DNA of 56,213 bases, filler included, from Dugesia japonica (lineage: Eukaryota): assembly GCA_001938525.1 (NCBI GenBank). It is 4 parts of 4 records of this genome, joined end to end, with 100 filler letters (N's around TTAATTAATTAA, not from the genome) between each part and the next. Parts side by side here need not be neighbours in the genome. Positions count along the whole stretch, not along the records: positions 1 to 28,118 come from MQRL01642257.1; 3 more parts are not named here. One strand, 5' to 3'. Positions 920 to 56,213 of the stretch are shown here, piece after piece; the first letter of the stretch is position 1; each line of letters opens with the position of its first letter. A program made the translations under genes and the position numbers. Under the pieces are notes generated by a model. That model was not told where the DNA came from. It saw only the letters and a program-made list of their open reading frames with translations, and did not search any database.

Positions 920-1017
920 ATCACTGACCAATCAGAATCAAGTATACTAGATCACTGACCTTTAAAAAATTTGACCTTGACGGGGGGGGTGATTCAGTGC
1001 TGAACAATCTATCTACT
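920..1017 (+). mobile_element. Polinton/Maverick terminal inverted repeat end
   Basis: G-run then gattcagtgc...atctatctact, matching the other ...tatcta(c/t)ctact termini; internal CCAAT and TGACCT motifs. Confidence 0.65.
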
Positions 1018-1820: not shown

Positions 1821-2207
1821 TCATATTGCATGATTCATGTTGTGAAATAAATCAATTAAATTATAAAATTCTGAAATTATATTATCTACATATCCTTGAT
1901 AGTGTAGTGTCTTTATACCAAGTATTACATTTTTTCCAGATGAAAATAAATTTACACATACAGGATCATACTTTGTAACACGTAATGCAGGGAACAATTC
2001 TTGTTCAAACCAATATTTTGTTATTTTTGCTAATTTATACAAATTGATAACTTTTTCNAAATTGATTACAATTGTTAATGATTGCAAACGAATATCTTTA
2101 ATATCATACTGTAATTTTTCCATTTTCAACGGGTTTTTACATCACATTATTCGACAACTTCTTGATTTAAAGAATATTAATGTATATTTTCCACTTTTGT
2201 CAACAAA
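1821..2207 (-). pseudogene. TATA-binding protein (TBP)-like gene within a Polinton remnant; 5' end in N gap, one stop and one frameshift
   Basis: IKDIRLQSLTIVIN.EKVINLYKLAKITKYWFEQELFPALRVTKYDPVCVNLFSSGKNVILGIK aligns by eye with TBP repeat 2 (IQN...YEPELFPGL...LIFxSGKVVLTGAK); upstream YTLIFFKSRSCRIM*CK resembles the end of repeat 1. Confidence 0.75.
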
Positions 2208-2423
2208 NNNNNNNNNNNNNNNNNNNNNNNNNNNNNNNNNNNNNNNNNNNNNNNNNNNNNNNNNNNNNNNNNNNNNNNNNNNNNNNNNNNNNNNNNNNNN
2301 NNNNNNNNNNNNNNNNNNNNNNNNNNNNNNNNNNNNNNNNNNNNNNNNNNNNNNNNNNNNNNNNNNNNNNNNNNNNNNNNNNNNTAGTATTATAAACAAT
2401 TTATTAAATTAAATCTATATAAA

Positions 2424-2624
2424 ATGGAGTTGAGAAATGATGCTGTTTATATAATTGTTGGTCCAAGTGGTAGTGGGAAAACCTTGTTTGATTGCAAGTT
2501 ACTAAAATCTAATTTATTTAAATCAAAATTTAACAAAATATATTGGCACAGAGGTGCAGATGAAGAGTATAGGTTGACACAATCAGAATTTTGCAACATT
2601 AAAATGAAAATTATAAAGGTATAG
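2424..2624 (+). pseudogene. Polinton packaging ATPase (A32/FtsK-like), N-terminal fragment
   Basis: IIVGPSGSGKT Walker A at the N terminus, followed by LLK...F...KIYW; truncated. Confidence 0.75.
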
Positions 2625-2912: not shown

Positions 2913-4815
2913 ATTTGTTTTTCCAAATGTGTTTCAAAGTAATAAAAAAATTAATAGATGTTGAATGCGTTCATCAAAATTAAGACAATCATCAAAATGA
3001 AGGCAATCATCATAATGAAGAAAATAGACAAAATGAAGAAAATCGACAAAATGAAAATTTCGATCAAATTTCAGAATATGATGGAAAATAAAGGCCTACA
3101 ACCGTAGATGATGAGGAAAAATATTTTGAAGCTAATGGTAACTTATTTTTATNNNNNNNNNNNNNNNNNNNNNNNNNNNNNNNNNNNNNNNNNNNNNNNN
3201 NNAAAATTGAAAGTAGTTTTAATTGGTTGTTAAAACTTATATATACTATATACAATTTAACTAAAATCATTTGTTTTTCCAAATGTGTTTCAAAGTAATA
3301 AAAAAATTAATAGATGTTGAATGCGTTCATCAAAATTAAGACAATCATCAAAATGAAGACAATCATCATAATGAAGAAAATCGACAAAATGAAGAAAATC
3401 GACAAAATGAAGAAAATCGACAAAATGAAAATTTCGATCCAATTTTAGAATATGATGGAAAATAAAGGCCTGCAACCTTAGATGATGAGGAAAAATATTT
3501 TGAAGCTAATGGTAACTTATTTTTATCAATTAAATATTTAAAAAATGATTGATTTAGAAAATATCGAATCCGATATACAAATGATGGAAGAAAAATTATC
3601 GAAAAGCTTAGACCTACTAGAAAAATCATCAAATGCATTTGATAAAGGTTTTTAATAGTCTGTACGGAAAGTCCGTTGAAAATTTTAAAAAAATAATACA
3701 TTTACGCTTATGCAATTCAAAGAAAAAGTTGATGACATATAGCTCAAAAGCAAGTTTTAAAAGAGCCATAAAAATAGATCAAGACTTGATAGCTGTTCTT
3801 CTCAACAAAGATATTGTATGTTTGAATCGACCAAACTACATTGGACAAACTGTACTGGACCTATCAAAACTTCGTATGAATCAATTACAATACGATCAGT
3901 CGGAAAAGTACAGGATAGAAGAAAATTGTACAATAAATATTGTAGCTGGCGATATGGATAGTTTTTTCCTGGAGGTTAAAAATATAAGTTTGGAAAAACT
4001 AATCGGTTTAATGGTGAGATATAAGTTATTGCATTTGCAATTTATTTTTTTTTTCATTTGCAATTTATTATTTTGTTTTAGATTTGTTCATGGATTTACT
4101 CGGACTTATATATCCAATTTTAAGAGAGGAGATGATTTATTGCTCACTAGAATTGATTTGGTTCAAAATAAAGACGTTAACAGGAATTGACATAGAAAAT
4201 TTTATAAAAATCTATGAAGAATATAATAAAGATAATAATTGCGAAAATTGCACGGAAAATAAGAAGATTTTGAAAAGAAAGTTTTTTGAATCAATTTATT
4301 TTGATAGTAATAAAAGAAAATGTTAAGTGTATTAGTTACATGTTTTNNNNNNNNNNNNNNNNNNNNNNNNNNNNNNNNNNNNNNNNNNNNNNNNNNTTAT
4401 TTTTATCAATTAAATATTTAAAAAATGATTGATTTAGAAAATATCGAATGTGGTATACAAATGATGGACCGAGAAGAGATATCGAAAGGTTTAGACCTTC
4501 TAGAAAAATCTTCAAATGCATTTGATAAAGGTTTGACTTAATTTTATTTTCAATTTAATATTTTGTTTTAAAATTGTTCATTGATTTACTCGGACTTACA
4601 TATCTTTCTTTAAAAGAAGAGATATTATATTGCGCACCAGAATTGATTTAGTTAAAAAAAAACGTTGACAGGAATTGACATAGAAAATGTTATAAAAATC
4701 TATGAAGAATATAATAAAGACAATAATTGCGAAAATTGTTCGGAAAATAAGAAGATTTTGAAAAGAAAATTTTTTGATTAAATTTATCATGACAGTCATA
4801 AAAGAAAATGTTAGC
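2913..4815 (+). repeat. Locally duplicated, spliced Polinton accessory gene with 18-bp (NEENRQ) microrepeats
   Basis: 2913-3152 is similar to 3269-3530; 3518-3650 to 4397-4533; 4060-4330 to 4550-4815; AATGAAGAAAATCGACAA tandem copies at about 3370-3425. Confidence 0.7.
3650..4030 (+). pseudogene. Protein-primed family B DNA polymerase (pPolB) fragment, Polinton
   Basis: NSLYGKSVEN (motif B), LNRPNYIGQTVLDLSKLRM, IVAGDMDSFF (motif C variant). Confidence 0.88.
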
Positions 4816-5100
4816 TTAATGTCGGTGTATTAGTATAATGTTGTAATATAAATTAATTTATTCAGTCAATTTGTTTTTCTTNNNNNNNNNNNNNNNNNNN
4901 NNNNNNNNNNNNNNNNNNNNNNNNNNNNNNNNNNNNNNNNNNNNNNNNNNNNNNNNNNNNNNNNNNNNNNNNNNNNNNNNNNNNNNNNNNNNNNNNNNNN
5001 NNNNNNNNNNNNNNNNNNNNNNNNNNNNNNNNNNNNNNNNNNNNNNNNNNNNNNNNNNNNNNNNNNNNNNNNNNNNNNNNNNNNNNNNNNNNNNNNNNNN

Positions 5101-5560
5101 AAGGGACATAGAAAAATTTTTGATAAATGATGAGTCACCATGATCTAGAGAATTTGGGCTTTGTTTGTTTTAAACAAATAAAAATTTTTGAAAAAAAATT
5201 TTGACTCACCCTGATCTAGAGAATGTTGGCTTTGTTATTTTAGACAGAAAAATTTTTGAAAGCGATGAGTCACCCTGATCTAGAGAATTTTGGCTTTATT
5301 TGTTTGGACATAGAAAAATTTTTGATGAAATGTATGACTCATCTTGATCTAGAAAAACTATGAGTCATCCTGATCTAGAAAAACGATGAGTCATCGATGA
5401 GTCATGGTCTTTGTTCTATTCAGCGATGAGTCATACCTATGAGTCAACGATGAGTCATCATCTTTGTTCTAGTCATCGATGCGTCATACTTATGACTTAT
5501 GCTCTTTGTCATAAAAGTTCTTTGTCTAGGGGGGATCCAGTGCGCCACTATCTACCTACT
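5101..5560 (+). mobile_element. Polinton terminal inverted repeat with TGA(G/C)TCA array
   Basis: Ends ggatccagtgcgccactatctacctact at 5560 (reverse complement begins AGTAG); about 10 TGAGTCA/TGACTCA copies and tgatctaga repeats. Confidence 0.75.
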
Positions 5561-12298: not shown

Positions 12299-15200
12299 NN
12301 NNNNNNNNNNNNNNNNNNNNNNNNNNNNNNNNNNNNNNNNNNNNNNNNNNNNNNNNNNNNNNNNNNNNNNNNNNNATTATTATTATTATTATTATTTTCA
12401 ATGTTTTTATTCAGATGTCACCACTTATATCAGATGGAGTAGATCTACTTGAAAAACGTATCTTGGAACATCCATATGATAAACCAATAGATTTTAAAGA
12501 GTATGCTTTTAACTTAAACTCATTACTTCATTAATTATTTAAAACTGTTTTACTTTCTTGTTTTGAGATATTTTTCATTTTTACTTAACTTTTGCCTTAA
12601 TTTTAGAAGAGTGATTCAGTTTATTCAGAAAAAATGAAGTAGAATAAAATTTGATTTATAAGTCAGATTAAAACTAGATTGAAAACAATTTTTTTATTTT
12701 AAACTTTTAATCTTTTCTCAATTAACCATTCTAGAGTCATTTACTGAAATATAATTTACTGTCAAATTTTTTTTAAACTTAAGACTTTCGAATCTATCGA
12801 ATTCATTGCGACTTTGGATAAAAGCTTCATTCCAAAAGCTTAAATAATATTCATACCACCAACAAAACTCGGATTTATATCTTTAACTACCGTAATGTAG
12901 GTATTCTTAATCATTCCATTCCAACTAACCCAAGCTTTAAACTCTCCTAAACATGTTATTAGTTTAGCAACGAATGCTCCTCTGAGAGATATATCTGATT
13001 GCCGCAAGATAGGATTTCCGCACATTCTCCACTTATCTTCTGACATCACCGGTACTGCTGCGTCCGTATCCCATAACATCGCTATCATCTTTCCATAACA
13101 TTCAACCAAGCTCCACCATCTACTATCTGCCTTCTTGAACACCATAGCATTTCGATTTACTGCATTTAATAGCTCCAATCTCTTTCTCTTCGAAATCTCT
13201 GCTTTCATCATAACCATATGCTAAATTGTCTGAATTATTTTCTTCATGAATACAGTGAACCTTTCTTGTGTTATTTCACAATAGGCTACAATTATTAAAA
13301 AAATGATTGTCCTACCACATATCAAACAACACTTATTCAATGGACAGTTGGTTCTGACATGACCGGACTCACCACAACAATAACATTCCCCTGGTTGAAG
13401 TCGTCTTAATTCGAGCTCAGGTAACCCTTTTGCTCTGTTATATACTCTTCTTGCTATATGCCTCATGGTAACTATAGGTCTTTGGGGCTTTTCGTATTCG
13501 TTCGACCTCTCCATAGGTTGTCTTCTCTCTGAATCCCTCAGTCCTCTATTTGAGTTGGAATACTACCTTCCTTGATTATTTACCAATGGTTTGATTACCT
13601 GTGGTATATTGTGTCTAATTGGCTTTTTAATACCTGTTACTACTGCGTATGTCGGCATATGTTCTCTTTTGCTATTTCCAATTGCAATAACTTTTGACTT
13701 TTCTTCAATACTCATTGAATTTCCGAAATTTGTCCTCAATTTCTTCCGAGGGCATATCTGGGTTCATTGCAATTGACTACTTTACTTTCCCTGAGCACAT
13801 TCTTTTTGAAATTATATCTTTCACGATCATGTCTTCTGTTTGCTTCACTAACAAAAACTCCTCTTATCAACTTCCTCACTCTAATAGCAAAATTTTATAC
13901 CTTTCATTTTATCGTTGATTTACTTGGCTCAAATCGTCGATCTTTTGCAAAACATTTTTCGACTTGATGTAATTTGAACTGTACCAATTTCTTGTATCTT
14001 CATCCTTCAGAATCTTTATTTTTTTTAAAGGCTAGCAATAATTCCTTCGTGTCACCGTTCAGCAATAGATCAAATGCTGTACATAAATTTAAAGAATTTA
14101 TGGTTACAAAATCTTCAATTGATTGTAGCCACTCTTTCGCATCTTCTTTGTAGCCAAAAAACTTTTTTATTATTGTGTTGGGTTTTCACGATTTTAAAAT
14201 GATGTTATTACTGTAGGGGCACACTCGTGAAGACCACAAGGATTTTAACGTCGTGTTTCCCTTACACGCTCTCGGTTTGGTTACGGTGACTCCTTTTTTA
14301 CGGGAGTGCTGTAACCGCCCCTTTAGTTTGGGTCCAGCGGGCCAGAGTGTTAGTCCGTCTTGGGAATATTTGGTTTTATTTATGTGCGATACATTACTAT
14401 CAGGACTTCAGTGACACTTTAAAAACAAAATTAAATTAAATGTAATTTCGTATCATTTTAACTTATCATATTTATCATTATTTCAATTGACCAATTGTCA
14501 AATATTCATTCACAGAAACTGTATTACACTTGCTATTAAAATTTAAAAATAACGATAACATGTTGTAATCAATTAATTCAATTCTGCATCCGTCACTCAA
14601 TCCGCATTGTTCCAATCTTACATCATCATCCATTTAGCAATTCTTGCTGAATCGTAAATACATTTTATTCAATTTGATATCTGTTTTATTAGAACAAATT
14701 TGTTTCAATCAACCAACAGTTGTAAATTTACTCAAATTAAATGCGAATTTCGATAATTCATGAATAATCGTCACTTTAATAGAATCTTTAGGAAACAATA
14801 AGCTGATCTTTTTCACTTCTTCAATCAATTCATTAAGCCTTGCAGTTATTGATTCAATTAATTGAATAATTCATTTAGTATTCATTTAGTATAGTATTCA
14901 TTCATTTTAGTAGAATATTCATTACTACTACTATCAGTTATCGTTATAAATCTGCTCGTTTCGCAATCATCACTGATATATCTTAAACAATTTTTTCCTT
15001 TAAATTGATTAGATTCAATATTGTTAAAATAAATGTGTTAATATAAATGTGTCATCAAATAAAAATGCATTTTTAACAATTATTGTATTATATACACAAT
15101 GTTATCAATATTACATTAATCAATAATGGTATTAAAAACAATCAATAATGATAATAATAATAATAATAAACCTTATATTTGTGAATTTTTTTAAAATTAT

Positions 15201-16389: not shown

Positions 16390-19300
16390 TTGATTGGCTC
16401 GACACCTGTGTTCCAGCCCAACAATTGGATAAATTGATTCTTGAACATTCTTTGGTAACGATTCTACAATTTTCATCTGCTGCTGACTCTGTGAGAACTG
16501 TCATTTCGGTGTGGTCGCCAGTTACAATACCATCTTGACTGATTAAATAATAATACCCTTTTCAAAAATGTATTACAAAACACTTTTTTGTATATTTAAA
16601 CAACAATATTATCTTATTTTTACTCATCCTTTTCTTGTTATTGCCTTTTTTTCCAATGAATTTCATAAATGAATTTTTACATAATCAACTAAATAAAAAT
16701 AATAAATAAAAATATTAATAGTTTTTAATGAAAAAGCATTATTAAATATTAATTAAGTTAAATTAAAATACATCAAAAGCGGATTAGAATTCAATGAAAA
16801 TATTAAGATCATTTTCTAAGATTTCAAGATAATATTATATTTACATGTCATTCCATTGAATTGAAATGTGGTTTATGAGCGGCAAGTCGCTCTGTGATCA
16901 AAGAATGTGCATAGAAAAAAATATTTGTAGAATTTTCTTTGAATTAAATTATATTTATGCATTATATTTTTACAAAAGAAAAGATAAAAGATACATACTT
17001 ACCGTCGATGTGGCATTCAAGTGAGGTCTGCTAACAGGGTTCCTTCCAACCATCTGCTATTTTGGTACATTATTTTTGTCAAATTCGTTTGTTTGCTCAG
17101 AACCTGCTCAAGAGATCTTATTTTGTTTGATATCGGTGCCTTCCACATGCTCTATTTCTTCCTGTTGTCCAATGTACCTCACGTCCGCTTTGATTTTTCC
17201 ACAAACTGTCTGCCGTATTTGGCACATCAATTACTTCAGGAAGTGATCTGATCATGTTCACTCTGCATGTTTTTGTCTTTTAGCTTTAGTTTAAAATTTT
17301 AAATTTTGAGCATCACGCACAACCAAACATACACAACTGGGTTTTTAATATATTTATTATTTATGAAAATTGAATACTTAAAAATTCTTGTTTTTTTAGA
17401 TAAATTATTGAATAGAGTAATTTGATTTATATAATCTATAATAGGTTGAAAATTGATATGAAAAATTGATTAAAATAAACAATATCGAATTAGATTTTTA
17501 TAACTAACAAAACGATAGTTGAATTAAAATCGTATTTTTCAAATTTGTACACAAATAAAATAATTGAGAGAAAATATATGAAATTTATTGATATTTATTT
17601 CCTTTAGATTTTTTGGTGCTTTAACAATGGATGTTATTGCAAGAACTATGTTCGGAATGCAAATAGATTCACAAACTAATCCTAATAATATGTTTATAGT
17701 TCATGCAAAAAAACTCTTTAGTGTATCAGCTTTTAATCCTTTCATTTTTCTTTTTTGTAAGCAAAATTTTTTATTTATAATATTTTTTAAAATGATTTTT
17801 TTTTGTTTCAGTAATATGTCCTAATTTAGCAAAATTTATAAGAAAACTCGTTCCTAAATATGAGATTTTTGGACGAAGCACCATGAAATTTTTCACTAAT
17901 AATTTACAAAAAGCAATTGATGAACGAGCTAAATTAACAGATGAACCGAGAGTGCTTTCTACTTATTAATGTAAAAAATAAATTTAATTAATCACATATA
18001 TAGGAATATAATGATTTCTTGGCATTAATGTTAAAAGCTCGTAAAGAAATCGATGGAAATGATACTGAAAGTGTTCATAATCTCGATTCTAAATCTTTAA
18101 CAAATCAAGAAATAATGGCACAATCATTTATTTTCTTATTAGCTGGATACGAAACTACTGCAACTACATTAACTTATTTGGCTTATTTTTTGGCTAAAAA
18201 TCCCAGTGCTCAACAAGAAGTTTATAAAGAAATTGTCGACTCTGTCGGAACTAATGTAAATCATTGTTATTTTTGTTTATTATTATGTGGAAATAATTAT
18301 TATTTAATAATTTCATCAAATAGAAATCGAGTTAACTGAAAATTAATATTTAAATTATTGTAATCATTTATTTTATCAAACATGTGTTGTAGTAGTAAAT
18401 AAATGATGCCTAAAAATATTAGTTGTGATTTGGCAAATGAATTATCAATTGAAGGTTTACCCAACATGGTGACAGCGGTAAATACCGATTCTTTTACAGA
18501 GATGTTATTGCCGAATGTGTTCTGCAGAGGAGATGGTATTGAGAAATACATCAAGCGGTGTGAATTGTATTTTGAAGCTAAAAACATCACCCAGATGAAA
18601 CAACAGGAGAAATTAGTCTCTTATTTGCTAGATGATGATATGTTTGAAGAATATTTAAAGACGTTTAAAAAAAGTTGAAGGTTTTCAGGTTCGTTTGCCT
18701 ATGGCATTTGAGAAAGAGAATTTTCAAAATTTGATTAAGTACAGGCGTAGAAATGAAAAGATTCAAGTTTATTTTAAAAATGTAAAAGATTTAGTAAAAA
18801 GATTATTTACAAATAAATATTTTACTGAGGAAAAAATGGCAGCAAAAATGCTAGTATATTGTTCCTATAACAAAAAAGTTGAAGAAGTGACTTTGCGGAA
18901 ATGAGAGAATATATAAAAAATTATAGAAACAATGACGTTAGTAGATCGAGTAGAGAAAAACAGAGATCAAGTTTATGCAGTGAGAAGTTACGCGAGAGTT
19001 ACAAGTCGAAATTAACAGAAACCTGTAAATCATACAGTGAATAGACATGTGAATCAAAGAAAGGAAAAAAATATCGAATGTTGTTCATGTCATAAGATCA
19101 GTCATACTAAAGCAAATTGTCAGTCAAAAAATGAGGTAGAGTGCTGGAATTGTCATAAACAGGACACAAGTCGAGATCGTCTAAATAAAAAACCAACATA
19201 ATGTTTTGGTTGTGGAAAGGTTAGCTATATTAGAAGGTTATGTCAAGAAGTGAAGTGTAAACGATGTGGTAATGGTGGACATAGGGCAGAAGAGTGGTAC

Positions 19301-22300
19301 ACAAATTTGAAAATGAAAATAACCAATGAGAAATTTATGACTGCAGAAAAATCAAGAAACCTTTATAATCGAGTAAATGCTATTGAAGGTGAAGATGTCA
19401 ATACAAACGATGAATGTGAGGAAGTGATTCCGAATGAAAGTGGTATGAAAATGATTCCGAAAGGCAATACCTAAAAGGCACTCAGGAATGAGTAATGAAA
19501 GATAGCGTTGTGCAAATAATAGTTCACTTGAAATTGTTGGGAAAGTTAGAACTGGAGTGATAATTGATGAAGTTTGCAAAGAGATTACTTTCTTAGTTGT
19601 TGAAAGAGTGACACCAGATTTGAATGGAGGAATAGATATGTAGAAGATTTTTGGATATCAGCTCATGCGAAAGGTTCATAGCAAAGCGGATGAAAAAGTT
19701 GAAAATTATATTTGTAATATTGAAGCGAAATTTGGGCGACAAATTAAAAAAGAAAATCGATTGACAAGAGCCTTAAATATTTTGAAGTTTAAAGAGGATC
19801 AACAGTTATTGAAAATAATTGCAAGTAAAGATGGCAGATAAATGGGATGTAGAACGCTCACATCTGGCAAGACACAAAATAATCACAAGTGGTGAACCAA
19901 TCAATGTAAAATCGTATAGGCAACCAATGAACTTAGAATATAAAATTAAAGAAGCTATCCAAAACCTTTTCGAGAATAATATTTCCCGGAAATGCAACTC
20001 TTCATTGAATACCCCACTTATTTGTTTTTGAAAAAAGAAAAAGTAGGACATAAGAATATATTTGGATTTCAAACAATTGAATGCAGTAACGAAAAGACAA
20101 GCCTTTCCTATGCCTAATGTTGATGAAATGTTGGACAAGTTAGATGGAGCCAAATATTTCAGTTCAATAGACTTGGGGTATGCATACTAGCAGGTAGAAC
20201 TCGAATAAGAATCACAAGAAAAAGTGGCGTTTTCAACGAAGCATGGAAAATATTGTTTTAATAGAATGCCGTTTGGAATTGCAGCAGCACCAGGGACATT
20301 TCAGGAGATGATGACAAAAGTGGTTGGCGGAATCAATGGAGCCATGGTTTATCTTGATGACATTCTGATATTTACGAACAATAAAGATCAACACTGTGAA
20401 ATAATTGACAGAATATTGATGGAAATAATGAAGGCTGGTCTAAGAAATAAACCATAAAAGTGTCAGTTTCTTCAAAGCGAAATCAAATTTCTTGGACACA
20501 TAATTAGCAGGGGTGGTGCTAGAACTGATCTGTCTAAAATAGAAATTATTATTTTAATACAAATGAAAATCATACTTAAAGTACTTTAAATAATTTAATT
20601 AATTTTAAATTATTATATATTATATTTTTTATATTATATATTTTTAAATAAAAATTAAATTCATTTTAAACTATTTTTAAAAGTTACATTAAATTATTTA
20701 TTTAAGCGTTTATTTATCTATTATTAAAATTCAACAAATTTAAATACCAAAATTTTAGAATTAATGCATGTTATTTTAAATAAATTAAATTATTGAATTA
20801 AGTCATTAATTTCAAATTAATTACTTCATTTCCAAATTTTTTAAATTTTTAATTTTCTACCTTTATTTTATCAAGTTAAGTAAATTATTTATTTAATTAT
20901 TTTCGTTAATAATTTCAGTCGAACTATCAAAAAATTTAACTGTCTCAAACCATACTTACAATTTATAATTAAAATGAAAATCAATAATAAATTGAATTCG
21001 ACAAATTACTACGTTTAACAAATTATATTTATTGATTTAATTAAAATTTTAATGTAAATCACAAACAGTAGTCATAGCAAAATTTATTTTCTATAAAACC
21101 GATTGCTATATATATTAAAAACATTTTTGCAAACAATTATTGTCATTATTTTTCAATAATAAAATAATGTTTGTGTAGCAAATTTAGTTTGAGTTAAAAT
21201 TTATAAAAATCAAAAAGTTCAGAATATTATGAGAATCAATTCACAACTTTTGGCACAGAAACAATCAGCAAAATTTAGGTTGAACAACTGTTCTACAAAC
21301 AATTAATCTACAAACTTCGTAGATGAAGAAGGAAGAGCGCAACCAACAAATTTTGATGACCACGTACTATTGGTATCCGTGAAAGAGGACAAAGGCTTGA
21401 TAACAAGAATGTTGACTGGATTTGACTCCTACGAACTATTGAACAACAACAAGTGTGTCCGAATTTTCACCGATTGGCTGCAGCGAAACTGCATTCCTAA
21501 AGAATCTCTTTATCGCGGATAAATCATAGCTTCTTTTCAAAGACTTAAAAAAGAGGTTTTGCGTTGCGCCAGGTGTTTCACCGAAATGAATATCTAAAGG
21601 TGTCCACCATAAAAGGCAATGTGGTGTGTTTGGTGTGACAGAAACGGGATTATCCACTGTGAAATCATCTCAAACGGGATTTGTTATTGTTGGAATGATG
21701 GCGATGGACATCACAATATCGGATTCTGGATATAAACGGCAAGCGTCAATTAAATACCATCAGCAATCTCTATCTGGCTAAATTTGACCGCATTCACGCT
21801 GCAATTTAGACGAAATTTCCGGACAAGAAAACATATCGTCTTCTACTACTTTGTTGAGCGTCGTTTCGTTGAATCTATCGACAAAAAGGGATGGAACTGC
21901 TTCATCATACGTTATAATCTCCCACAGAAGTTCCTACGGACTATTAAGTCAATCGATTTTTGAAAAATTGACTTGCTGAAAGTATAGTTGAAGGTATGCA
22001 GTAATGGAAGATATGACAAAAAGTGTAAGAACAATTTATATACCAAAATAATATATATAAGCCTTATATAAGCCTTTTAAGAATTATTTTTTATAAATGT
22101 TCCGCATAACCAGAAATACACTCAGATCATCAAAAGAGATATCATACTCAATGAGCCTCCCTTAATTAAGTCGAATCAATTTATCAATGATTGTTCTGCT
22201 CACAATTCAGACACAAAAAGATTAACAAGGAAAATAATAAGTTTAATAAGCTAAACACACATAATAATCATTATCTATTTAAGATAAGCATCTATTTAAA

Positions 22301-25300
22301 ATGTTTCTATTTAAATGATTAATGAAATGTATTTTAATTGTTAATATAATTTGTTTAAATTCAATGTGTGCAATCATTGTTAACTTTACAAGGAGGAATT
22401 TAATACATCAAGCGTTCTCATTAGTCCCTTAAATGTGTACGCACCTTTTTATTACTTGATTGTTTTTAAATTTTTTGTGCTTTCTTTGTATTTAATTGGG
22501 GATAGGTTTTAACGATTTTTAACCATATTATTGATTAGCGTAAAATTCTCTATCAAATAGATACTCTAATGATAAAATGTATTTCGAAAAAATAAAGATT
22601 TTACCAAAAATGATACTGAGCAAATTCTCAGCAGACTAGTATGAAATTTTTAATGTTTTGAAAACGAAAATTATTTTTGAAAAATTTCAAAATTTGGTTA
22701 ATTTAAACAAAAAGGATCTTTTCTCCAGATTTTCCGTTGAGAAATTAAAATTTCCGAGTGATTATGTTATAGGTAACGGAATTATGATATAATATTCATT
22801 ATTATGTAAACTCTGAGTTATTACGCCCACACTGCGTAATTTTGCCATAATCATGGATTATAATGTAATAATAATTTTAATAATAATATAGAAAACTTAA
22901 AACCCGGGTTTCGAGTAATTCCGGGGCAAAGGCTATAAAATATATTATATAATTGGTACATCGTCTCTTATAAAAGTTTTTTTTTTCCGATTAAAACTTA
23001 AATAAAGTAATTATAATAAAGTTCTGTTCAATTTTTATAAATTTTTAATATAAATGTTACTAAATAAGTAATTAAAATAAGATTTTTAATTATTTAAGAG
23101 TGTAATTATTGATTTATTTCAGGGTGATATAACTTATGAAAGTTTAATAGGAATGCATGCTCTTGATGCTGCTGTATGTGAAACACTAAGAATTTGTCCG
23201 CCAGCGGGTAGAATTGACAGATGTTGCACTCAAGATATAGTGTTAGAAGCTTCTGATGGTAGTAAAATAGTTGCTAGAAAAGGTGATATTTTCGCCATAC
23301 CAATATATGCTATTCATACGGATCCTTCAATTTGGGTGAACCCGGATAAGTTTGATCTTCATCGGTATTGAAATTTATTTATTTATTATAAAATGAAATG
23401 CTCTTATGACTGTTCAAAAATATCTTGGTAAATCATAATCGCAATTTATTTCACAAATTAACAAAGTTAATTCAATTGGTTCAAATTTTATATAATAAGC
23501 ACTTTTTTAATCAATCAAATATTATGTACGATTTTCGGAAATAATTCTGAAATAATAATTAATTAATAATTAAATAATTCGAAAATTTAAAGAAAAAATT
23601 ATCTGTTATTAAAACCTAATTTAAAATTTTCACAAAATTTCAAAGCAAACAACCATTCGCTAATAAAATATTTATTTTTAATTTTCTAAATTTTAAAACA
23701 AAATTGTAGATTCTAAAAATCTACAATAAATTGTGTATAAAAATATATGAATTAATCTTTAACTACACATAATTTTTTTTTACCAAAACTTTAATTTAAT
23801 TTACTTTTATTTCTTGATTAATTTGTAAATTCAATTTTTAAGTAAAAGATTTTTAAAAAAATAATTTCCAATCACAACACAAACATTTCAATTCGCTTTT
23901 AAAAACACACTTACAAACCATATTACACAATAACTTTTTAAAAAATAAAATCGAGAAATTGAGTCCTTTCAGGATACAAAAATATTTAAAAATTATTTAC
24001 AATTTTTAAGAAAATAAGCAAAATTTCCTAATTATTCACATAGAAGAAATCAAAATCATAGTGCAAATTCGCATAAGTAAACAAATAATTGCATTATCAA
24101 TAAAAATTTAATCGATAATAATTATAATTGTTCATTTCAATTTTCAATTTCAATTCAGGCATGAAATCAATATTAATCTAGTTTATAAGTTTAATCGCAA
24201 TTCTAATTAACTTTAAAAAAATATTTCTTATATAGATTGTTACATCGATTTTTTGAATATTAGTTTTAATCGTCCATTTAAATTAATTTATTATTTGTTA
24301 AATGATTTGTAATATGTTATTATTATAAATTATTTGTAATATGTTATTATTATAAATTATTTGTAATATGTTATTATTATAAATTATTTGTAATGTGTCA
24401 TTATTAATATAAATTATTTATTAATTGTAATTTAATAATTGATTAATGGGTAGTTAATAAATTTTTGTTATAAAAAATCAAAAAAATATTAAAATAAGTA
24501 ATTAACAAAGCCTTTGTGGTTTTATTTGATCAACCTCTTTTCGTCTTTTTATCCACTGATGGAGGCTGAGCATACTTATGTCTGATTGCAATTCCAATCA
24601 ATTGTTTGCATAAGTACTCGTGCATAAGCAAGTACCATGTCTTCACTTGTCTGGTACAACTGACAAACAAGTATTGGTAAAATGTTTTTTGGTTTGATTT
24701 TCAAATTATATAATTGATTTATTTTTTGTTTACTTACATTGTAAAATAGGTTAGGGCTAATTTGGGCTAATAAAACACAAGTAATTATTCTTAAAAATTC
24801 TTGTTGCTTTCTGAACGTTTCTTCCCAAAATTGCTTTATGCAATATATGTTTTATATAACTAATTCAAACAATTTATTAAAAATATATATTTTATTAAAT
24901 TATTTAAATTATATAAAATATCATTTCATTTTTAAATCGTCACAATATATTTAGTGTGTATTTAAAACAATTATTAATAATTACTGATTTGTTAAATAAT
25001 TTATTTATTAAAAATTAATAATTATTGGTAAGCAAAAGTAAACTATATTTCAGACACGGAGAAAGTTTGGTTCTTTGCCAATTTTTTGTGACTCAATTAT
25101 AATTTTTAAAGTTATAACTAAAATATTTAAATTTCACTCCTATTTGGTTGATTTTTTATGCACTCAAAAAATAAAGTTTTTTTTCTCTTTTTTCCCTTCA
25201 AATTTTTTTCTTTTTTTAATATTAGCTATAATAATAAAATTAAATTCAGATTCATATCGAGAACTTGTGATTCACCAGCATTTTTAAAATTTCACAAATG

Positions 25301-26899: not shown

Positions 26900-27400
26900 T
26901 TGATTAACGGTATCAAGGATGCAGGAATCCATCTACAAAGGACCAAATATCAGAAGGAAGTTCAAAACCGAGAAAGTAGAATGTTGGAACTGTCACAAAC
27001 TGGGATACATAAGTCGGGAGTACCCAGACAGAATACCTTCTACATGCGAAAGTTTAGGGCATATAAGAAGGCAGTGCAACAAGATAAACTGCGGAAAATG
27101 CAACAAGAATGAACATAAAACCAAAGACTTTTTCACAAAGATGGAGTACAGCAGATGGAACGAATATACTTCCGAATATAAGAGAAATAAGATTTTAAAA
27201 AGCTCTCATTTCGGGGTAGGCATGTTAACATCAATACGGGGGAAGACGATGAGACGAGTAACAAGGAATATGAGGACGACAGATATGAAGACATTATATA
27301 TGATGACAATAGATATGTCGCAAACTTATATGAACCAAAGAGAAACTCAAACGCAGAAGTTCCACTAGCAGGGCAGATGGTGGGAGCGGTAGAACTCAAA
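26900..27400 (+). mobile_element. Gypsy gag zinc-knuckle fragment (related to the 18385-20545 element)
   Basis: VECWNCHKLGY, TCESLGHIRRQC and CGKCNKNEH resemble VECWNCHK and YIRRLC at about 19135-19250. Confidence 0.75.
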
Positions 27401-28499: not shown

Positions 28500-28925
28500 A
28501 TAATTTTCTTCGTCGGATGGAGAGGTCATGATCTACAAAATTTTTTCTTTGTATATTTGGAAAAATTTTTGAAAAAAAGAATGACTCATGATCATGAAAA
28601 TTATTTCTTTGTTATATACTCTTCTTTGTTAGTGGGGAGGGGTGTCTTGGTTCTGACTTGGAAAATTTTTCGAAAAAATTTATGACGCATCCGATGAGTC
28701 ATTGTCTTTGTTCTACATAACTGATGACTCACCATCATGAGTCATGGTCTTTGTTCAAACCAGCGATGACTCATCACCATGACTCATTTCTTTTTTACTA
28801 AAAATGATGAGTCATATAAATTTTTCAAATTCATTATTTAATTTAATTTAGCTAATTATTATTTGTTAGTAGTTTAAAAGCGACTAATATTTCTTAGTGA
28901 TCTAGTGCGCTACTATCTACCTACT
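28500..28925 (+). mobile_element. Polinton terminal inverted repeat with TGA(G/C)TCA array
   Basis: About 7 TGASTCA, gtctttgttc motifs as in 5101-5560; ends tgatctagtgcgctactatctacctact. Confidence 0.75.
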
Positions 28926-29689
28926 TATTTTAAATAAAAAATTTTATTTAGTTGTTTTCACAGATCAATGGTTAAAATTTTTAAAATAAAAATATTTTAA
29001 GCTATATTTCCACAGCCTAAATGTTATAAAATTTCGCAATTTTAATTTTTTGTTTAAAGTTACTACAACCCACGAAGCTTATCACAAGTGATCCAGAAAC
29101 TTTCAAAATAGCAAATAATAACTTCAAAATTCAAAATTTTATTTAAAGTTTAGAATTTTAGCATGGAGTTAAAAATAAAATGACACATTAAGATAATAGC
29201 AGACCACACATTTTACCATATAAATTAGAAATAACTTAGAAGATATGAAGAGTTTTGCAAATTTGAATGATTCTCAAACAATACGGGGTGGTGAATTATT
29301 CAGTTCTATTTTAACAAATGTTAAATTATTAAACAATTCTAATATTACGCATGATGGAATTTTATATATTTCGTCTCCAAGAATGTTTTGGGGATATGTT
29401 GCAGTCTTATTTTTCAGAATTCTGTGGATAATACTTTTGATTTCAACAACATATTTGAATTCAATATTCGAATATTAAACGTAAAACGAAACAAAGACAA
29501 TGTTTTCTTTCAACTAGAAATTCGTTCGCGAAAAAGGAGAAAACCTCATTTTCTTACATGTATTCACTTCAGATATTCGAAATAGTTATTTTTGTTATTT
29601 CAATAATATAGTTACTTTTCTATAAAAATATCATAAAATATATCTATTAAAAATATTTTTGTTTCATTTTTGCGTACAATTACACATGG

Positions 29690-31200
29690 AGATTTTTCTG
29701 TTGTTGATGGGATGCACGATATTGACTGATTTCTGAACTTATTAATACGATATCTGAGGATATGATGAAGTTCATATCCTCTTAAATTATAAAAGATAAT
29801 TGAATATGCAGTTGTCTACTTAAATTGAATTGGTTGCATGCTTCTCCTCTATATTTATCCGTGAAATGATCGTGATCGCGAAAGGGATCTGTTAATTTCT
29901 TTTTACATAAATAACAAATTCTTGCATCTCTGAATTCAATTTCTTGTTCCTTTGTTATTATTATTTTCTTTTTTCCTCTTGTTTTACATTAAGGAAACAC
30001 AATGTTTTCGCTTATTTCCTCTACAGCCTTTAAGAAATTATACGCACAGTCATCTCCCATAAACTGCCTGTATTTTATTTCGTTAGTAAAATTATTTACG
30101 AACAACAGACCAGTCAAAACAGTTAATGTTTCTGGAAATGCCTTTCCTCTGAAAATAAAACTGACTCAAAGTCAGCGATATCACACAAGTTAGTGTTATC
30201 TTTTTTGAGAAGTCCTTTAAAATTAAGTTCTTCTCCGTTGGCATCGTATACACTTGTCTGGATTTTTTCACAAATTGGTTCATGTTTATCATAAGCTACT
30301 ACATTTTTTGAATCCATCGAGACAGTTAGGACACCATGTTGATTGAATACGAACACTCTGTCTTTTATTATCTTTTATTATCCCGGTTCATTAGACGATT
30401 TTGATTCATTATTGCAGTGTAATGAAATCTGTTGTTATTTTCTAGTAATAAAAGATAGATTTTTTGGCCATCTATCACTTTTTACCGGTGAATTATATCA
30501 AAATTCGAATGTTTCATGACTATTTCATCTTCTTCATCCTCCATTGATTGCTGGTTGTATGACAGGACATTGATGGATAGTCCTGAATTATTTCTTTCAA
30601 ACTTTGATATATCATTAAACTTCACCGGCATTTCCTATTCGTTGAATACAAGGTACGACATGTATTTTTTATATTTTAATATTTGTTGTCTATTAATTTT
30701 TCCAACTTGATCTTTTTTGGTGACAGCAAGAATACTGTAAATAAAACAGTAATTATCATCGTTTTTGATGTTTACAACAACTCTTTTATTTTTTAGATCT
30801 TTTGAATTTGGAATATAACCTTTCCCCGAAAGTCGACAAGTCTGCAACTTTTATGATCTTGAAATTAATTTCCGGTATTCGATTCAACCTCCAACAGGAT
30901 CCTAGTTCCCTATTTATTGTTATTTACTCATTTAATTGGTAGATCCCATCTTCAAAAATGTTATTAGTTAATGCAACAGCTCTATTCAATATTTTACAGC
31001 TTTTTAACTCCACTTCTTTTCCAACGGAAGTTGTTGTTATTCTTTTGAACTCAACATTTATCCTAAATTTGATTTTAACCTGTTTCATTTCTTCTATTGG
31101 CTGAAATACTTTGTTGACCATTGCTTCTGGTAAAATTATTTCACAATTTTATCATGAGACATTTATTTTTAAAACACGTTAACAGCGATTTAAATAAATT
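29690..31200 (-). pseudogene. Polinton pPolB N-terminal half (terminal-protein region, exonuclease, endonuclease VII-like insert)
   Basis: GSCWRLNRI, GKGYIP..DLKNKRVVVNIKNDDNYCFIYSILA, ADFESVL (ExoI), CYLC...RDHDHFTDKYRG (Zn/endoVII), FYNLRGYELHHI (ExoII); frameshifted. Confidence 0.88.
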
Positions 31201-35030: not shown

Positions 35031-35749
35031 TTGATTGAAGTTTAGTTATATGGTTTGAACAAATTCATACACATTAAAATACATATTTAAAAAATTTGAA
35101 AAGATGGAAAAATATATTGATACTACTACCCACGATCATCACCAGACTGAACCACCTATTGTTCACATGGTTTCACACTTAACTTTAATTAATGCAGCTG
35201 ATATCCTCGTTTCATATTAATTTGTTTAATATTTGCATACCACAACCTTTATTTGTACCATTTCATTAGCCCTTTCATCACGCGGTGTCTCTTTCCATTG
35301 CATCGCATTATTTTTCGACTACAACATAATTGATACCCCGCTTCAGTTTATCATCATATGACACCACCACATTTGAGTTCTCTTAATGGAAAATTACAAC
35401 ATCTCTTTATTTTATTTCTCATTGAACGCTATTCGTTCCTAATTGATCATCATTCATCTTTGATTTAATTCTCTTTGAACATCATAATTACAATTTGATT
35501 CATAACTATTAAACTCTGATTTAACATTATTCATTTTGATTACTCATCATAATAGCTTTTTGTTTCATTTCTGTTTGAAAATACTGGTAATTGGATTCGT
35601 TTCTGATTACACATCATTCGTTTAAATTGCATATAGCCTTTTGATTCTTTTCTGTTTGAATCCCACATACTGTTTCGGTTTACTTTAATATTTAATATTT
35701 AATAATTTTAATAAGTCTTTATAAAAACATGTAAAAACATATTTTTATG

Positions 35750-36570
35750 ATTGCATAGGGTTAATGGGTGTATTATTTGCTTGGTAACTTTGTATTATTT
35801 TCATAGCAACCGTGTATTATAGGGTTTATAAATAGTCATCTTGTATTATTTACATAGCAACCATGTATTTTAAGGTTTATGAGTGTTTTATTTGCATAGT
35901 TACCTTGTATAATTGTCATAGCAACCGTGTAATATATAAGGTTTAAAAAGGAAGAGGGTTTATGATTGTATATGATTTATAAGTATAATGGTTTATGAGT
36001 GTGTGACCTTTTCATATAAATAACTAAAATTACTGTATAAATACCTCATAAGTAAATATTTTTATGAGTGTATAGGGTTTATAATTATAGGAAAGATATA
36101 AATAACTTAAAATTACTATATAAATACTTTATAATTAAATATTTCTAGGAATAGGGCTTACGAGTGAGAAACATTTGCATATATATAACCTAAAACTATT
36201 ATAAAAATACCTTATAATTAAATATTTTTATGACTATCTAATGTTTATGAATGCATTATTTACATAGTAACCATGAAATATAAAGTTTGTGAGTATATTA
36301 TTTACATAGCAACCGTGTATTATAGAGTCTATGAGTATATAGGGTTTATAAGTGTATTATTTGCATAGTTACCTTGTATTAGTTACATGGCGACTGTTAA
36401 ATATAGAGTTTGAGTGTATTATTTGCATAGTTACCTTGTATCATTTACATAGCAACCATGTATTATAGGGTTTATGAGTGTATCATTTACATATTTAACT
36501 TGTATTATTGACATAGAAACCGTGTAATACATGGTTTATGAGGGTATTATTTGCATAGTAACCCTGTAAT
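35750..36570 (+). repeat. Array of about 22/64-bp subrepeats; left arm of an inverted repeat
   Basis: tatagggtttatgagtgtattatttgcatagttaccttgtattatttacatagcaaccgtg recurs many times. Confidence 0.8.
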
Positions 36571-36601
36571 ATAATAATATAAGTAAAATAAGTAATATTT
36601 A

Positions 36602-36965
36602 TGTAGTATTAATATTGTAGCTGGTGATATTGATAGCCATTTCTTTCTAGATTTGGTGGATATAAGTAAAGAAAATCTTACGGTATTAATGAAGAAAGAC
36701 GAATTATTAGATACTTTAAACCATAGTAATACATTGAATTCTATTAAGTGTAAAGATGAGAATGAGGAAAAGAAGTATATAGAATGGATATTCTTAGGTC
36801 CAAAACTTTACAGCTTGCTTTCTGAGAAAGAAACAATGAAAACAAAAGACTTAACATTGCAAAATATCTGCATCAGCCATCAAGCATATGTTGACCACTA
36901 CAATTGTGATTAAAAGGTTTCAGTCAAATAATTTTGAATTGTTTCTAAGAATCATCAACTGTTTA
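36602..36965 (+). pseudogene. Polinton pPolB C-terminal fragment
   Basis: CSINIVAGDIDSHFFL...LLDT...KDE...IEWIFLGPKLYSL...SKNHQL; homologous to 3930-4030. Confidence 0.8.
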
Positions 36966-37112: not shown

Positions 37113-37420
37113 ATGATAACCAATATTAATTACAGAGGTGAAGTGACGCAAGAAGTAACAAAGAAAATGAGCTTTCTTACAGGTAGACCATGTCAATATC
37201 AAGTCAAAAGTGATAAATTTACAATTATTTACTTCAGATTAAAAAATGTAGAATAATGGGTTGTAAGAAATTATAGGAACCTCATGATTTGAACCCCTAT
37301 TATATGACGAATTTACAATTACAGTCAATAACAATTGTCGTAAATATGGGAGTTTCCATAAATATGTATAAATTAGCAAGAATAGTCATCTGTTGGTTCG
37401 AACCAGAGTTATTTCCTATC
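37113..37420 (+). pseudogene. Second TBP-like gene copy (N-terminal repeat to EPELFP); frameshift and stop, truncated
   Basis: MITNINYRG...DKFTIIYF../KCRIMGCKK...NLQLQSITIVVNMGVSINMYKLARIVICWFEPELFP; homologous to 1821-2207. Confidence 0.72.
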
Positions 37421-37423
37421 TGA

Positions 37424-37649
37424 ATAATACAAGGTAACTTTGCAAAAAATACACCCATAAACTCTTTATAACATGGTTGCTATGTAAATAATACAAGGTA
37501 ACTGTGCAAATAATACACCCATAAACGATATATTGCACTGTTGTTATGTAAATAATATACTCATAAACCTTATATTTCATGGTTGCAATGTAAATAATAC
37601 ATTCATAAACCCTAGACAGTCATAATAATATTTAATTATAAGATATTTT
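37424..37649 (-). repeat. Right arm of inverted repeat (reverse complement of about 36200-36480)
   Basis: 37545-37649 reverse-complements to 36202-36307 with scattered mismatches. Confidence 0.8.
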
Positions 37650-37702
37650 AGTAGATAGATAGTGGCAGTAAAGAACAGCACACATTCAGCGAACCCCCCC
37701 CC
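37650..37702 (+). mobile_element. Polinton left terminus AGTAGATAGATAGTGG...
   Basis: Near reverse complement of the 49222-49273 terminus. Confidence 0.75.
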
Positions 37703-38707: not shown

Positions 38708-39540
38708 TCAAAAATTTAATATAGCACTGTTAAAGTGTAATTTTGCAGCTACCATTTTGAGGAGATCGTTGTGAATCCGTATGGATAGGTTGATGTCCTC
38801 GATAATCAGGCCATCGTAATTGATATCGTTGTTGAGTAGCGCTAGCTGTTTGGTGGTTACATAAAGCGCATTATTAAAATGAGCTAATGCATATTGGGTT
38901 TTGCCGATTTTGGTTGGTCCCACAAACACCATTGTATGGTTGTCGAATGGCACTGTTTGGCGAATTAACGATGTAACAGCATATTTGCATTTGGTTTGTT
39001 TAGCTGTTAAATCATTGAGCACATTGATGATCTTTGATTTTTTATTGATGTAGTCTGCGTGAGATTCAGATTTTACTAAATCCATGCCTTCCTTAACATA
39101 CGTACTATGTAAAACCCGATGCCAAAGCGATTTGTTCAACTCTATCCGTTCACCGATCTGTATGCGAACACCACCTGGTACACGCGTTTCTCCCTTACAA
39201 CAGTAGTCTATGCCAGACTCTATTTCGCCTGCTGCAACCGCATGTACATAGTTGAACTTAAACTGCTGTCGAACTTATAAATTATAACGTTATAAATTAA
39301 TACTAAATATATAACAATATAATTTACCTGAAAGAACTTTCTGCCTTGGTGTAATGTGACAAAACACTCTAAGTGTTGCTACCCATTTTCTGACACCTCT
39401 TCTTGAGCTATTACAAACTTGTATTCACCGAATAATTTATCCTATAGTTGTTTGTTATCCAAATAGTCCAATGTTATTACACCACCGACCGGGTGCATAA
39501 CATTTTTCCATCTGCAAGTTGAATCTATAGTTTCTATGCC
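38708..39540 (-). pseudogene. Endogenous CRESS-DNA-virus-like Rep (HUH endonuclease plus SF3 helicase) with a 53-nt intron
   Basis: FVIAQEEVSENG*QHLECFV (motif II), intron 39275-39327, IDYCCKGETRVPG (motif III), VFVGPTKIGKTQYA (Walker A), YDGLIIEDI (Walker B); in-frame stops in the first exon. Confidence 0.82.
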
Positions 39541-54719: not shown

Positions 54720-55206
54720 TATTACCTGTACTAAAAATGTCTTCGCGTTTAGAGTCAAAGAAAGCCACAAGACCCTATTTAATATCAGTGGAATCAATGA
54801 ATTATCTCTGATTCAAATAATTTTACAAAGATCAAATTAGGAAGTAGTTTGAAAGAGCAATTTCAGACGAATATGGAGGGTAATTAAGAACTTCCCAACC
54901 CTGTTCGTGTTTTCAACGGTGTTTTGATTGTAGTATGTTGTCTAGTATTGTCATCGCGAAGAAGAACACCCTTTCTGTTAGCAAAATTCTGATATTTATT
55001 ACGTAATTTGGTTTCTAAACATATCAGGTTATCATAGTACTTATCGACAGTAATTGTTTCACCAAGTGGCAATAATAATAAAATTAAGAGTCCTTTTCGA
55101 TTCCGCCGAAGAGAAAATATAAGCTTTTGTTGATGTATATCCAACTTTCTGTCTTTGGTACCAGTGGTCTCGGTAAGTCATAATCTCTTTTACGTGTGAC
55201 GTTATT
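54720..55206 (-). mobile_element. Mariner transposase C-terminal remnant, cut by a Polinton end at 55207
   Basis: LLPLGETITVDKY...RKGVLLRDDNTRQHT, LGWEVL, PPYSSEIALSNYFL. Confidence 0.8.
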
Positions 55207-55522
55207 AGTAGGTAGATAGAAGTAACGAAAAGAAATAACACTGTTCTTGAATTTTGGTATTGGTTATCGTGGATTTATTGATTGGTGACTTTTAGTATTT
55301 AAAAATCCCAGAGATCAAACAGTTTTTGATTTTCTAGCAACGCAGGCGTACCTAAATAACAGACAATTGCATATTGATTCATTTCAAGATGCAACAGAAA
55401 AATCCCAGGGATACTTATTTTTCGACTTTACGCAACAATGTCCATATGACTATAGAGTGAAAACAGATATATTTAGTCCAAATGGTATCACAGTGTATAA
55501 ACAAATTAGGCAATCTTATTAA
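55207..55522 (+). mobile_element. Polinton left terminus (AGTAGGTAGATAG) followed by packaging ATPase C-terminal fragment (55289-55522)
   Basis: LVFKNPRDQTVFDFLATQAY...FQDATEKSQGYLFFDFTQQCPYDYRVKTDIF, a typical Polinton ATPase C terminus; absent from the ORF track because it has no start. Confidence 0.8.
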
Positions 55523-56213
55523 TACTACACCTCAAAATATATCTATTGTTAAGAAAAAGTACAAAAAAGACGAAACAATCACATAAGAACCAACTTGTAA
55601 ATAAGAGAATGAAATTGAATATGTTTAAAACCTAGCAAAATGGAAGAGAAAGAAACTGAGAATGATGAATGCAAAATGGATATTATAAACCATTCACTGG
55701 TATGTATGTGTTATTGAAATAAAAATGAAATAAGAAAGAAGTATTCCATTTTTACCACCTTGATTAAATCATCAAAATCTTCAAGAATAAAAATTTTGCA
55801 ATCATTTCCACTGCATATTATATACTAGTCATCATAATTTTTTCGCTTTACGATTTTTCTTAGATTTTTTAAACAGCAGTTCCTTCAAACATCAATATGG
55901 ATCTCGATTGNNNNNNNNNNNNNNNNNNNNNNNNNNNNNNNNNNNNNNNNNNNNNNNNNNNNNNNNNNNNNNNNNNNNNNNNNNNNNNNNNNNNNNNNNN
56001 NNNNNNNNNNNNNNNNNNNNNNNNNACTTATATTATATTTTAACAAAACATTTATTTATTATATAAATTGCCTTTTCTTTCTAACACTTTACAAAGGCGT
56101 TTCACATAACCTATATACAATTCATTTATCTTGTGATGGTGACTTTGATTTATGTCTGCAATAACGTCATTAATTTTTTTAATTAAATGATGTTTTGAAG
56201 TAAATTGAGGTCC

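Follow-up and report, generated by a model that had tools for sequence, protein, structure and literature searches.

How do Polintons, which are without an RNA polymerase, time the expression of their capsid genes, and do they have a real viral cycle? This question is raised by a broken gene in a 56,213-nucleotide stretch of Dugesia japonica DNA (assembly GCA_001938525.1; four parts joined end to end, filler included), which is the whole of the DNA analyzed here and is referred to as the window. An earlier note read this gene as that of a TATA-binding protein (TBP) captured by a Polinton and perhaps used by the element to drive its own transcription or to compete with host TFIID. We find that the gene is genuine but dead, a copy of a mini-TBP gene that is conserved in Polintons and belongs to a two-lobe family of ~150 aa. 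The window's copy is only a fossil of the proposed system of mini-TBP and promoter word.

The TBP-like pseudogene and its surroundings

The window is AT-rich eukaryotic DNA with many gaps, in which 18004-18336 and 23090-23368 hold exons of cytochrome P450. Its first TBP-like gene (Table 1) contains a minus-strand open frame at 1821-2141, 106 aa between stops with a single N at 2058, in which the motifs quoted in the earlier note are present. This frame scores 25.9 bits against Pfam PF00352 (curated cut-off 22.9, E 9e-6), and each of the 34 entries in its PDB listing at E<=10 is a TBP or a TBP fusion, with 1mp9 as the best match (E 1.2e-7). The best PDB sequence matches are archaeal both for the window ORF and for the family profile described below, a likeness that we do not take as evidence of origin. 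Both intercalating Phe residues of lobe 2 are kept, as the note had observed, and so is the acidic stirrup of lobe 2. An in-frame stop at 2142-2144 separates the open frame from a lobe-1 part at 2145-2207; with the stop read as X, the frame runs to the gap at 2208 and includes this lobe-1 remnant, which indicates that the gene once had two lobes. The copy is pseudogenized, as had been proposed.

Table 1. Positions of the features discussed in the text; the last row refers to related loci, all others to the window
Feature	Position	Strand	Remarks
Terminus-like CTATCTACT	1009..1017		orientation as at 5560
TBP-like pseudogene	1821..2207	-	lobe 2 and C-terminal helix, stop, lobe-1 part; 5' end lost to gap
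Assembly gap, 177 N, between TBP-like and ATPase pieces	2208..2384		window sequence
Candidate late promoter word ATAAAC	2392..2397	+	26 nt before ATPase start
A32-like packaging ATPase, 5' fragment with Walker A	2424..2624	+	broken off after about 66 codons
Protein-primed family B polymerase (pPolB), C-terminal fragment	3654..3992	+	61% to L009 pPolB
Element right end	5101..5560		subterminal repeats, then CTATCTACCTACT; presumed Polinton-type pattern
pPolB C-terminal fragment adjoining second TBP-like copy	36602..36964	+	sequence comparison
Second, diverged TBP-like pseudogene	37113..37417	+	frameshift near 37238-37244, in-frame stop, cut inside lobe 2
Accessory gene loci	L017 1918-3327; L066 606-1739; L011 4008-4316; L036 1710-2168; L042 13315-13893		

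The note had placed the TBP-like ORF head-to-head with a packaging ATPase. The GPSGSGKT ORF does start at 2424 on the plus strand, but the head-to-head junction is not confirmed, as the order of the two pieces across the 177 N depends on scaffolding. The ATPase piece matches Pox_A32 weakly (E 0.01) and the ATPases of related loci at 54-62%; the latter match Pox_A32 with E 1.5e-7 to 1.8e-6. In the 30 related loci that have an ATPase, it is co-directional with the TBP gene in 27, divergent in 2 (L002 and L049) and convergent in 1, and both divergent loci are within the top three matches to the window ATPase piece. The pPolB fragment reported near the TBP-like ORF is confirmed as a C-terminal piece, and the pPolB family of related loci matches Pfam DNA_pol_B_2 at E 3.4e-23. 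No trace of an rve integrase, C5 protease or double-jelly-roll capsid was found in the window element.

The gene was also said to lie between Polinton termini at 1017 and 5560. Terminus-like ends are indeed present at both places, but they do not form a TIR pair around the gene: on the plus strand CTATCTAC(C)TACT stands at 1009-1017 as well as at 5548-5560, so that these are two right ends that face the same way, not one inverted pair. The end at 1009-1017 is probably the right end of a different element. No inverted copy of the 5101-5560 end occurs anywhere in the window, and no left end was found for the window element. The standard gene set of Polintons and their terminal pattern reportedly go back to Kapitonov and Jurka in 2006 and Pritham in 2007, and the pattern applied to the window ends is what we take to be the Polinton type.

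At least eight ends of this type, from several families, are found in the window, right-type at 1009, 5548, 6255, 28913, 45600 and 49265 and left-type at 37650 and 55207. Those at 37650 and 49273 form an apparent inverted pair enclosing 11.6 kb, with 6-bp flanks that do not match. The subterminal repeats contain TGA(G/C)TCA, which we take to be an AP-1-like word, 10 times in 5001-5500 and 7 times in 28501-29000, against at most one in every other 500-nt bin. Three duplications of 87-91% inside the element (2913-3152/3269-3526, 3517-3651/4397-4534 and 4052-4325/4542-4813), each pair split by gaps, reflect either tandem decay or mis-assembly.

The second TBP-like copy, 55% identical to the first over 40 aa, breaks off within lobe 2 where a repeat array starts at 37424. 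Inverted 42/64-bp repeat arrays (35717-36596 and 37424-37649) flank this copy and its pPolB piece, and resemble a fold-back having captured element fragments. Further Polinton debris consists of a decayed N-terminal half of pPolB at 29636-31121 (-) and a decayed piece at 55289-55822 (+) with an ATPase C-terminus and the small gene after it. A 188-codon frame at 38711-39274 (-) with the Walker A motif GPTKIGKT resembles by eye a CRESS-type Rep superfamily 3 helicase and has no Pfam match. The stretches 12843-13562 (-), 18403-20186, 26904-27365 and 54887-55177 (-) hold gag/protease-like remnants of LTR retrotransposons (zinc knuckle, E 0.006) and part of a mariner-type transposase, and one of them lies within a P450 intron.

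The mini-TBP family, its loci and its residue pattern

Searching with the window protein gave 9 relatives at 46-80% out of 11 candidates, and 187 clusters at 50% identity. With a 62-sequence profile, 447 of 2420 candidates (90% clusters) matched at E<=1e-5, most relatives being 145-175 aa long; IMG/VR scans with TBP alignments gave no relative. The ESM Atlas returned TBP clusters only (score 0.97), a recognition that lies under its bar, and its taxa are uninformative on range. With four intact element-type proteins of ~150 aa the window copy shares 62-70% identity, as against only 20-24% between the family and cellular TBPs. The family profile matches PDB TBPs at E 8.7e-22. The fold was assessed on P0003, an intact homologue that is 70% identical to the window copy and has an AF2 model with pLDDT 96 and pTM 0.85. 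Foldseek aligns this model with TBPs from end to end (E 2.5e-9), and it superposes on human TBP with Z 13.5 and an rmsd of 2.5 Å over 147 aligned residues at 20% identity, the next unrelated fold being at Z 7.2. An intact relative of the window copy is thus predicted to fold as a two-lobe TBP saddle.

In a tree of 44 rows, 36 of them hand-picked locus proteins, the window copy nests in the element family with P0003, P0004, P0006 and P0007 (support 90/86, which falls short of the star bar) and lies far from two cellular-type rows. As eukaryotic TBP, TRF2 and giant-virus TBP were left out of this tree, it cannot name the donor. A further reading is that the window copy is a processed host TBP or TRF2 pseudogene that fell among Polinton debris. 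The broken state of the copy and the fragmented local assembly speak for such an origin, but the 62-70% identity to element-type proteins speaks against it, and both window copies adjoin pPolB pieces. We give this origin practically no credence and consider it refuted by the identity pattern together with the Polinton context of the relatives. Three TBPs, those of L074, L079 and L080, fall among the cellular-type rows in the tree and could represent separate captures. At L079 2065-2868 and 3043-3582, a near-canonical TBP (Pfam E 1e-42), possibly a separate and recent capture, lies beside a gene that fuses a single TBP lobe to a domain that is PC4-like by eye.

A metagenome scan yielded 126 relatives from 262 pattern matches, of which the best 80 were kept as loci. 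Neighboring ORF families in these best 80 loci include the A32-like ATPase (30), rve integrase (16), a presumed minor capsid (16; our own label, with no database match), a PLA2-like gene (16), major capsid (11), pPolB (9) and C5 protease (9), and the major capsid is a double jelly roll (E 1.3e-14). A core gene (ATPase, integrase, capsid, protease or pPolB) is present in 41 of the 80 loci and in 23 of the 27 that are at least 4 kb long; the other four of these carry accessory families found in other loci. The relatives thus have Polinton genes around them; no complete TIR-bounded element is among the best 80 loci. TBP and ATPase similarities are correlated across the 23 loci having both (Mantel rho 0.61, p 0.0005). 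Judged by gene content, the mini-TBP gene is a conserved gene of a large or widespread Polinton group. It also evolves under purifying selection, as shown by a median dN/dS (Nei-Gojobori) of 0.23 over 102 usable, non-independent pairs with dS 0.05-1.5 from 77 ORFs; the ATPase value is 0.26 over 12 pairs.

Several other genes accompany the mini-TBP. Four unassigned families recur beside it in different clades (L004 2024-2389, L021 2934-3512, L043 1088-1828, L056 8399-8848), and may be ssDNA-binding OB folds, the Atlas structure leads being weak and concerning one family. A conserved family of ~155 aa (L032 5870-6352, L045 2078-3034) with a D-x-E motif and a C-terminal Cys/His cluster occurs in 21 loci, is often duplicated adjoining TBP, and looks exonuclease-like by eye with no Pfam match. 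For neighbor families f2, f4, f14, f17, f19 and f28 no assignment was reached. Accessory genes (Table 1) encode a leucine-rich-repeat protein behind an ATAAAC word, a KilA-N zinc-finger protein, a dual-specificity phosphatase and RING proteins.

For the residue pattern, 276 natural proteins were reduced to 220 of 135-210 aa; once these were dereplicated at 90% and two cellular-type TBPs taken out, 201 were left, and 188 of these have both lobes. The register was taken from an alignment to Encephalitozoon TBP, with yeast numbering, and alignment A4 served for the register only since the two cellular-type TBPs included in it inflate its E-values. The equivalents of F116, F190 and F207 are each kept in 188 of 188 proteins while the first intercalating Phe (F99) is replaced by Pro in 182, so that the family retains three of the four intercalating Phe found in canonical cellular TBP. 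The DNA-facing sheet has changed at V71 (to N in 160), V122 (to R in 185), T124 (to M in 186), N159 (to S or T in 185) and L205 (to N in 186). Of the two stirrup acids, the first is retained by 183 of the 188 (175 E, 8 D) and the second by all 188 (187 E, 1 D). The linker that would hold helix H2 of lobe 1 is at most 22 aa in 142 proteins and at least 26 aa in 34, compared with 32 aa in the cellular-like L079, and the P0003 model is without this helix. We infer that the stirrup acids correspond to C.L3.2 and C.L3.4 of Ravarani et al. 2020 (PMC7221094), where passages on TBP surfaces describe two acids that contact TFIIB, with C.L3.2 only about 40% conserved in viral TBPs, and a basic patch of H2 that binds TFIIA, TAF1, Brf and Mot1.

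The ATAAAC word and the proposed role of the mini-TBP

The proposal that the element uses its TBP for its own transcription gains support from a word upstream of its genes. In dereplicated 100-nt upstream regions of virion and packaging genes, taken from related elements that are not independent of one another, ATAAAC is present in 81 of 111, as against a mean of 8.0 and a maximum of 16 in 200 shuffles and 1 of 111 on the antisense strand. By gene, it precedes the ATPase in 24/28, major capsid in 9/10, PLA2-like gene in 10/12, integrase in 10/16, minor capsid in 8/16, protease in 3/6 and two small conserved genes in 13/18 and 4/5, but TBP, pPolB and six accessory families in only 16/114. When all hexamers are scanned ATAAAC also ranks first, and its end often lies 27-33 nt ahead of the ATG; it was first spotted by eye, and the virion and other gene groups, like the "other variant" group below, were set afterwards. 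At several loci it overlaps the stop codon of the preceding gene. The base before it is T in 66, C in 34, A in 7 and G in 3 cases, and the polyadenylation signal AATAAA is ruled out as its source since A precedes in 7 of 110. The upstream regions of the TBP gene itself have a TATA plus initiator layout in 11 of 61 and ATAAAC in 7 of 61.

The word follows the type of TBP. Elements with the main type have ATAAAC in 81 of 93 regions and 32 of 33 loci, whereas those with other TBP variants have it in 0 of 18 regions and 0 of 6 loci; in these six loci the N159 equivalent is kept where seen and the Arg/Met pair is absent. In L073 and L077, which have a distinct TBP variant, YAYGCA(A/G) is found in 7 of 8 regions, on the structural strand and in several cases 27-35 nt upstream. 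The lineages behind this co-variation number only two or three and are at the same time the most divergent elements in the tree, so that shared ancestry can explain it. Elements with a linker of at least 26 aa carry ATAAAC too, indicating that loss of H2 is not needed for the motif. An IMG/VR scan with the ATPase gave 5 distant loci (23-31%) with no TBP-like match and no clear ATAAAC pattern, too distant to serve as a TBP-less control; the IMG/VR scan with the capsid alignment gave no relative, and a tblastn search of phage records with the capsid had no match.

Based on these patterns we think it rather likely that in intact elements the mini-TBP acts as a late-gene factor on ATAAAC that recruits host TFIIB and RNA polymerase II. 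Host TBP would transcribe the mini-TBP gene early, some copies of which show TATA together with TCA(T/C)T. The mini-TBP would then bind (T/C)ATAAAC upstream of the capsid, packaging and integrase genes, the polar substitutions on its DNA-facing sheet shifting its preference from TATAWAW to this word. The C of ATAAAC belongs to the box's 3' half, which in cellular TBP is contacted by lobe 1, and four of the DNA-face substitutions lie in lobe 1. The kept stirrup glutamates would bind host TFIIB and so bring in Pol II, while loss of lobe-1 H2 may free the protein from control by TFIIA, TAF1 and Mot1, and the virion genes would thereby be switched on. That this amounts to an early-to-late switch made of one protein, an H2-less TBP of 150 aa with a private word and host TFIIB, in which protein and word changed together (ATAAAC versus YAYGCAA), has in our view about an even chance of being right.

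The earlier suggestion of competition with host TFIID survives as a rival reading, in which host TBP reads ATAAAC and the element protein, as a decoy or repressor, ties up TFIIB or sits on host TATA boxes and so dampens genes of the host or early genes of the element. The C(-25) variant of the TATA box presumably reads TATAAAC. Judging from the title of PDB entry 1qn3, wild-type cellular TBP was crystallized on this C(-25) variant and so tolerates it, by which host TBP could read many ATAAAC sites; both TFIIB-contact acids are retained, and an H2-less protein could be dominant-negative. We nevertheless hold a decoy to be unlikely, as a specific site accounts better than a decoy for the invariant polar changes of the DNA face, the word changes or disappears where the TBP variant changes, and one third of the sites start with C.

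It is less likely still that the mini-TBP bends DNA at termini or origins in a non-transcriptional job in replication, integration or packaging. The gene does often sit directly upstream of the packaging ATPase, and one recurring neighbor weakly resembles viral ssDNA-binding folds (TM <0.55, which is sub-threshold and a lead only). Such a job, however, would not need the TFIIB stirrup acids to be kept, and the enriched word follows gene starts rather than element ends.

The least probable of the roles that we considered, and one we very much doubt, is a private initiation complex formed with element-encoded partners and without host TFIIB, as in large DNA viruses and herpesviruses. In the passages of PMC7221094 on viral proteins almost all viruses having TBP also encode a TFIIB-like protein, and the Polinton contigs are incomplete and hold several conserved neighbors with no Pfam match. 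Against this, the 105 ORFs chosen to represent the loci, among them those from five contigs of 12-18 kb, gave no match to the TFIIB family, and the stirrup acids are 97-100% kept compared with about 40% at C.L3.2 in viral TBPs. No RNA polymerase was found in the locus ORFs scanned either.

Relation to known TBPs and TBP mimics

The related loci share pPolB, rve integrase, A32-like ATPase, C5 protease, double-jelly-roll capsid and the PLA2-like gene with Polintons/Mavericks, adintoviruses and MELD viruses. A TBP-like gene is labelled in the legend of a MELD-virus figure by Starrett et al. 2021 (PMC8502044; preprint 10.1101/697771), a legend that gives no family, residue analysis, promoter word or function. 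The supplement text of PMC8502044, figures apart, has no match for tbp, tata or four family motifs, and a term search of the nematode Polinton preprint 10.1101/2023.08.22.554363 has none for tata, transcription or promoter. Within the openly accessible literature searched, we found no description of a Polinton TBP family or of an ATAAAC promoter word.

If the proposed one-protein switch is true, the mini-TBP and its word would make up the smallest orthogonal TBP-promoter pair in nature and would show directly that these integrated elements have a viral late program. A conserved mini-TBP with a matching word offers a direct test of how these elements time their capsid genes, as well as a marker for late genes and active elements. 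The family also shows how far TBP can be trimmed, and supplies natural TBP variants with a probably altered DNA preference.

Like cellular TBP (the eukaryotic TFIID subunit and archaeal TBP, PF00352), the mini-TBP has a whole-length saddle, three of the four Phe and the lobe-2 stirrup acids; it differs in its 20-24% identity, its length of about 150 aa, the change of the first Phe to Pro, the polar DNA face, the mostly absent H2 and in being encoded by a mobile element. Among viral proteins it would work like the herpesvirus vTBP (KSHV ORF24, EBV BcRF1), given the kept Phe and polar DNA interface, although it matches BcRF1 models weakly (E 3.5e-3). Passages of PMC12529657 describe the beta/gammaherpesvirus vTBP as a mimic that steers host Pol II towards late genes via a TATA variant, and KSHV ORF24 as without the TFIIB-contact acids. 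ORF24 is moreover described as a multidomain protein in a six-protein complex, whereas the mini-TBP is a bare saddle that keeps these acids. The mini-TBP also resembles the TBP-like proteins of Nucleocytoviricota, which are two-lobe viral homologues (the best match in BFVD has E 2.7e-8 at 17% identity), and the part of PMC7221094 on lobe 1 states that the regulator surface is not conserved in viral TBPs. Nucleocytoviricota TBPs mostly come with their own TFIIB and diverged stirrups, whereas in the 15-20 kb Polinton elements neither TFIIB nor RNA polymerase is present in the ORFs scanned. The mini-TBP with its candidate promoter word is thus a variant on the known theme of viral TBP mimics, set apart from giant-virus TBPs and ORF24 by a kept stirrup, a regulator helix that is mostly gone and no TFIIB match.
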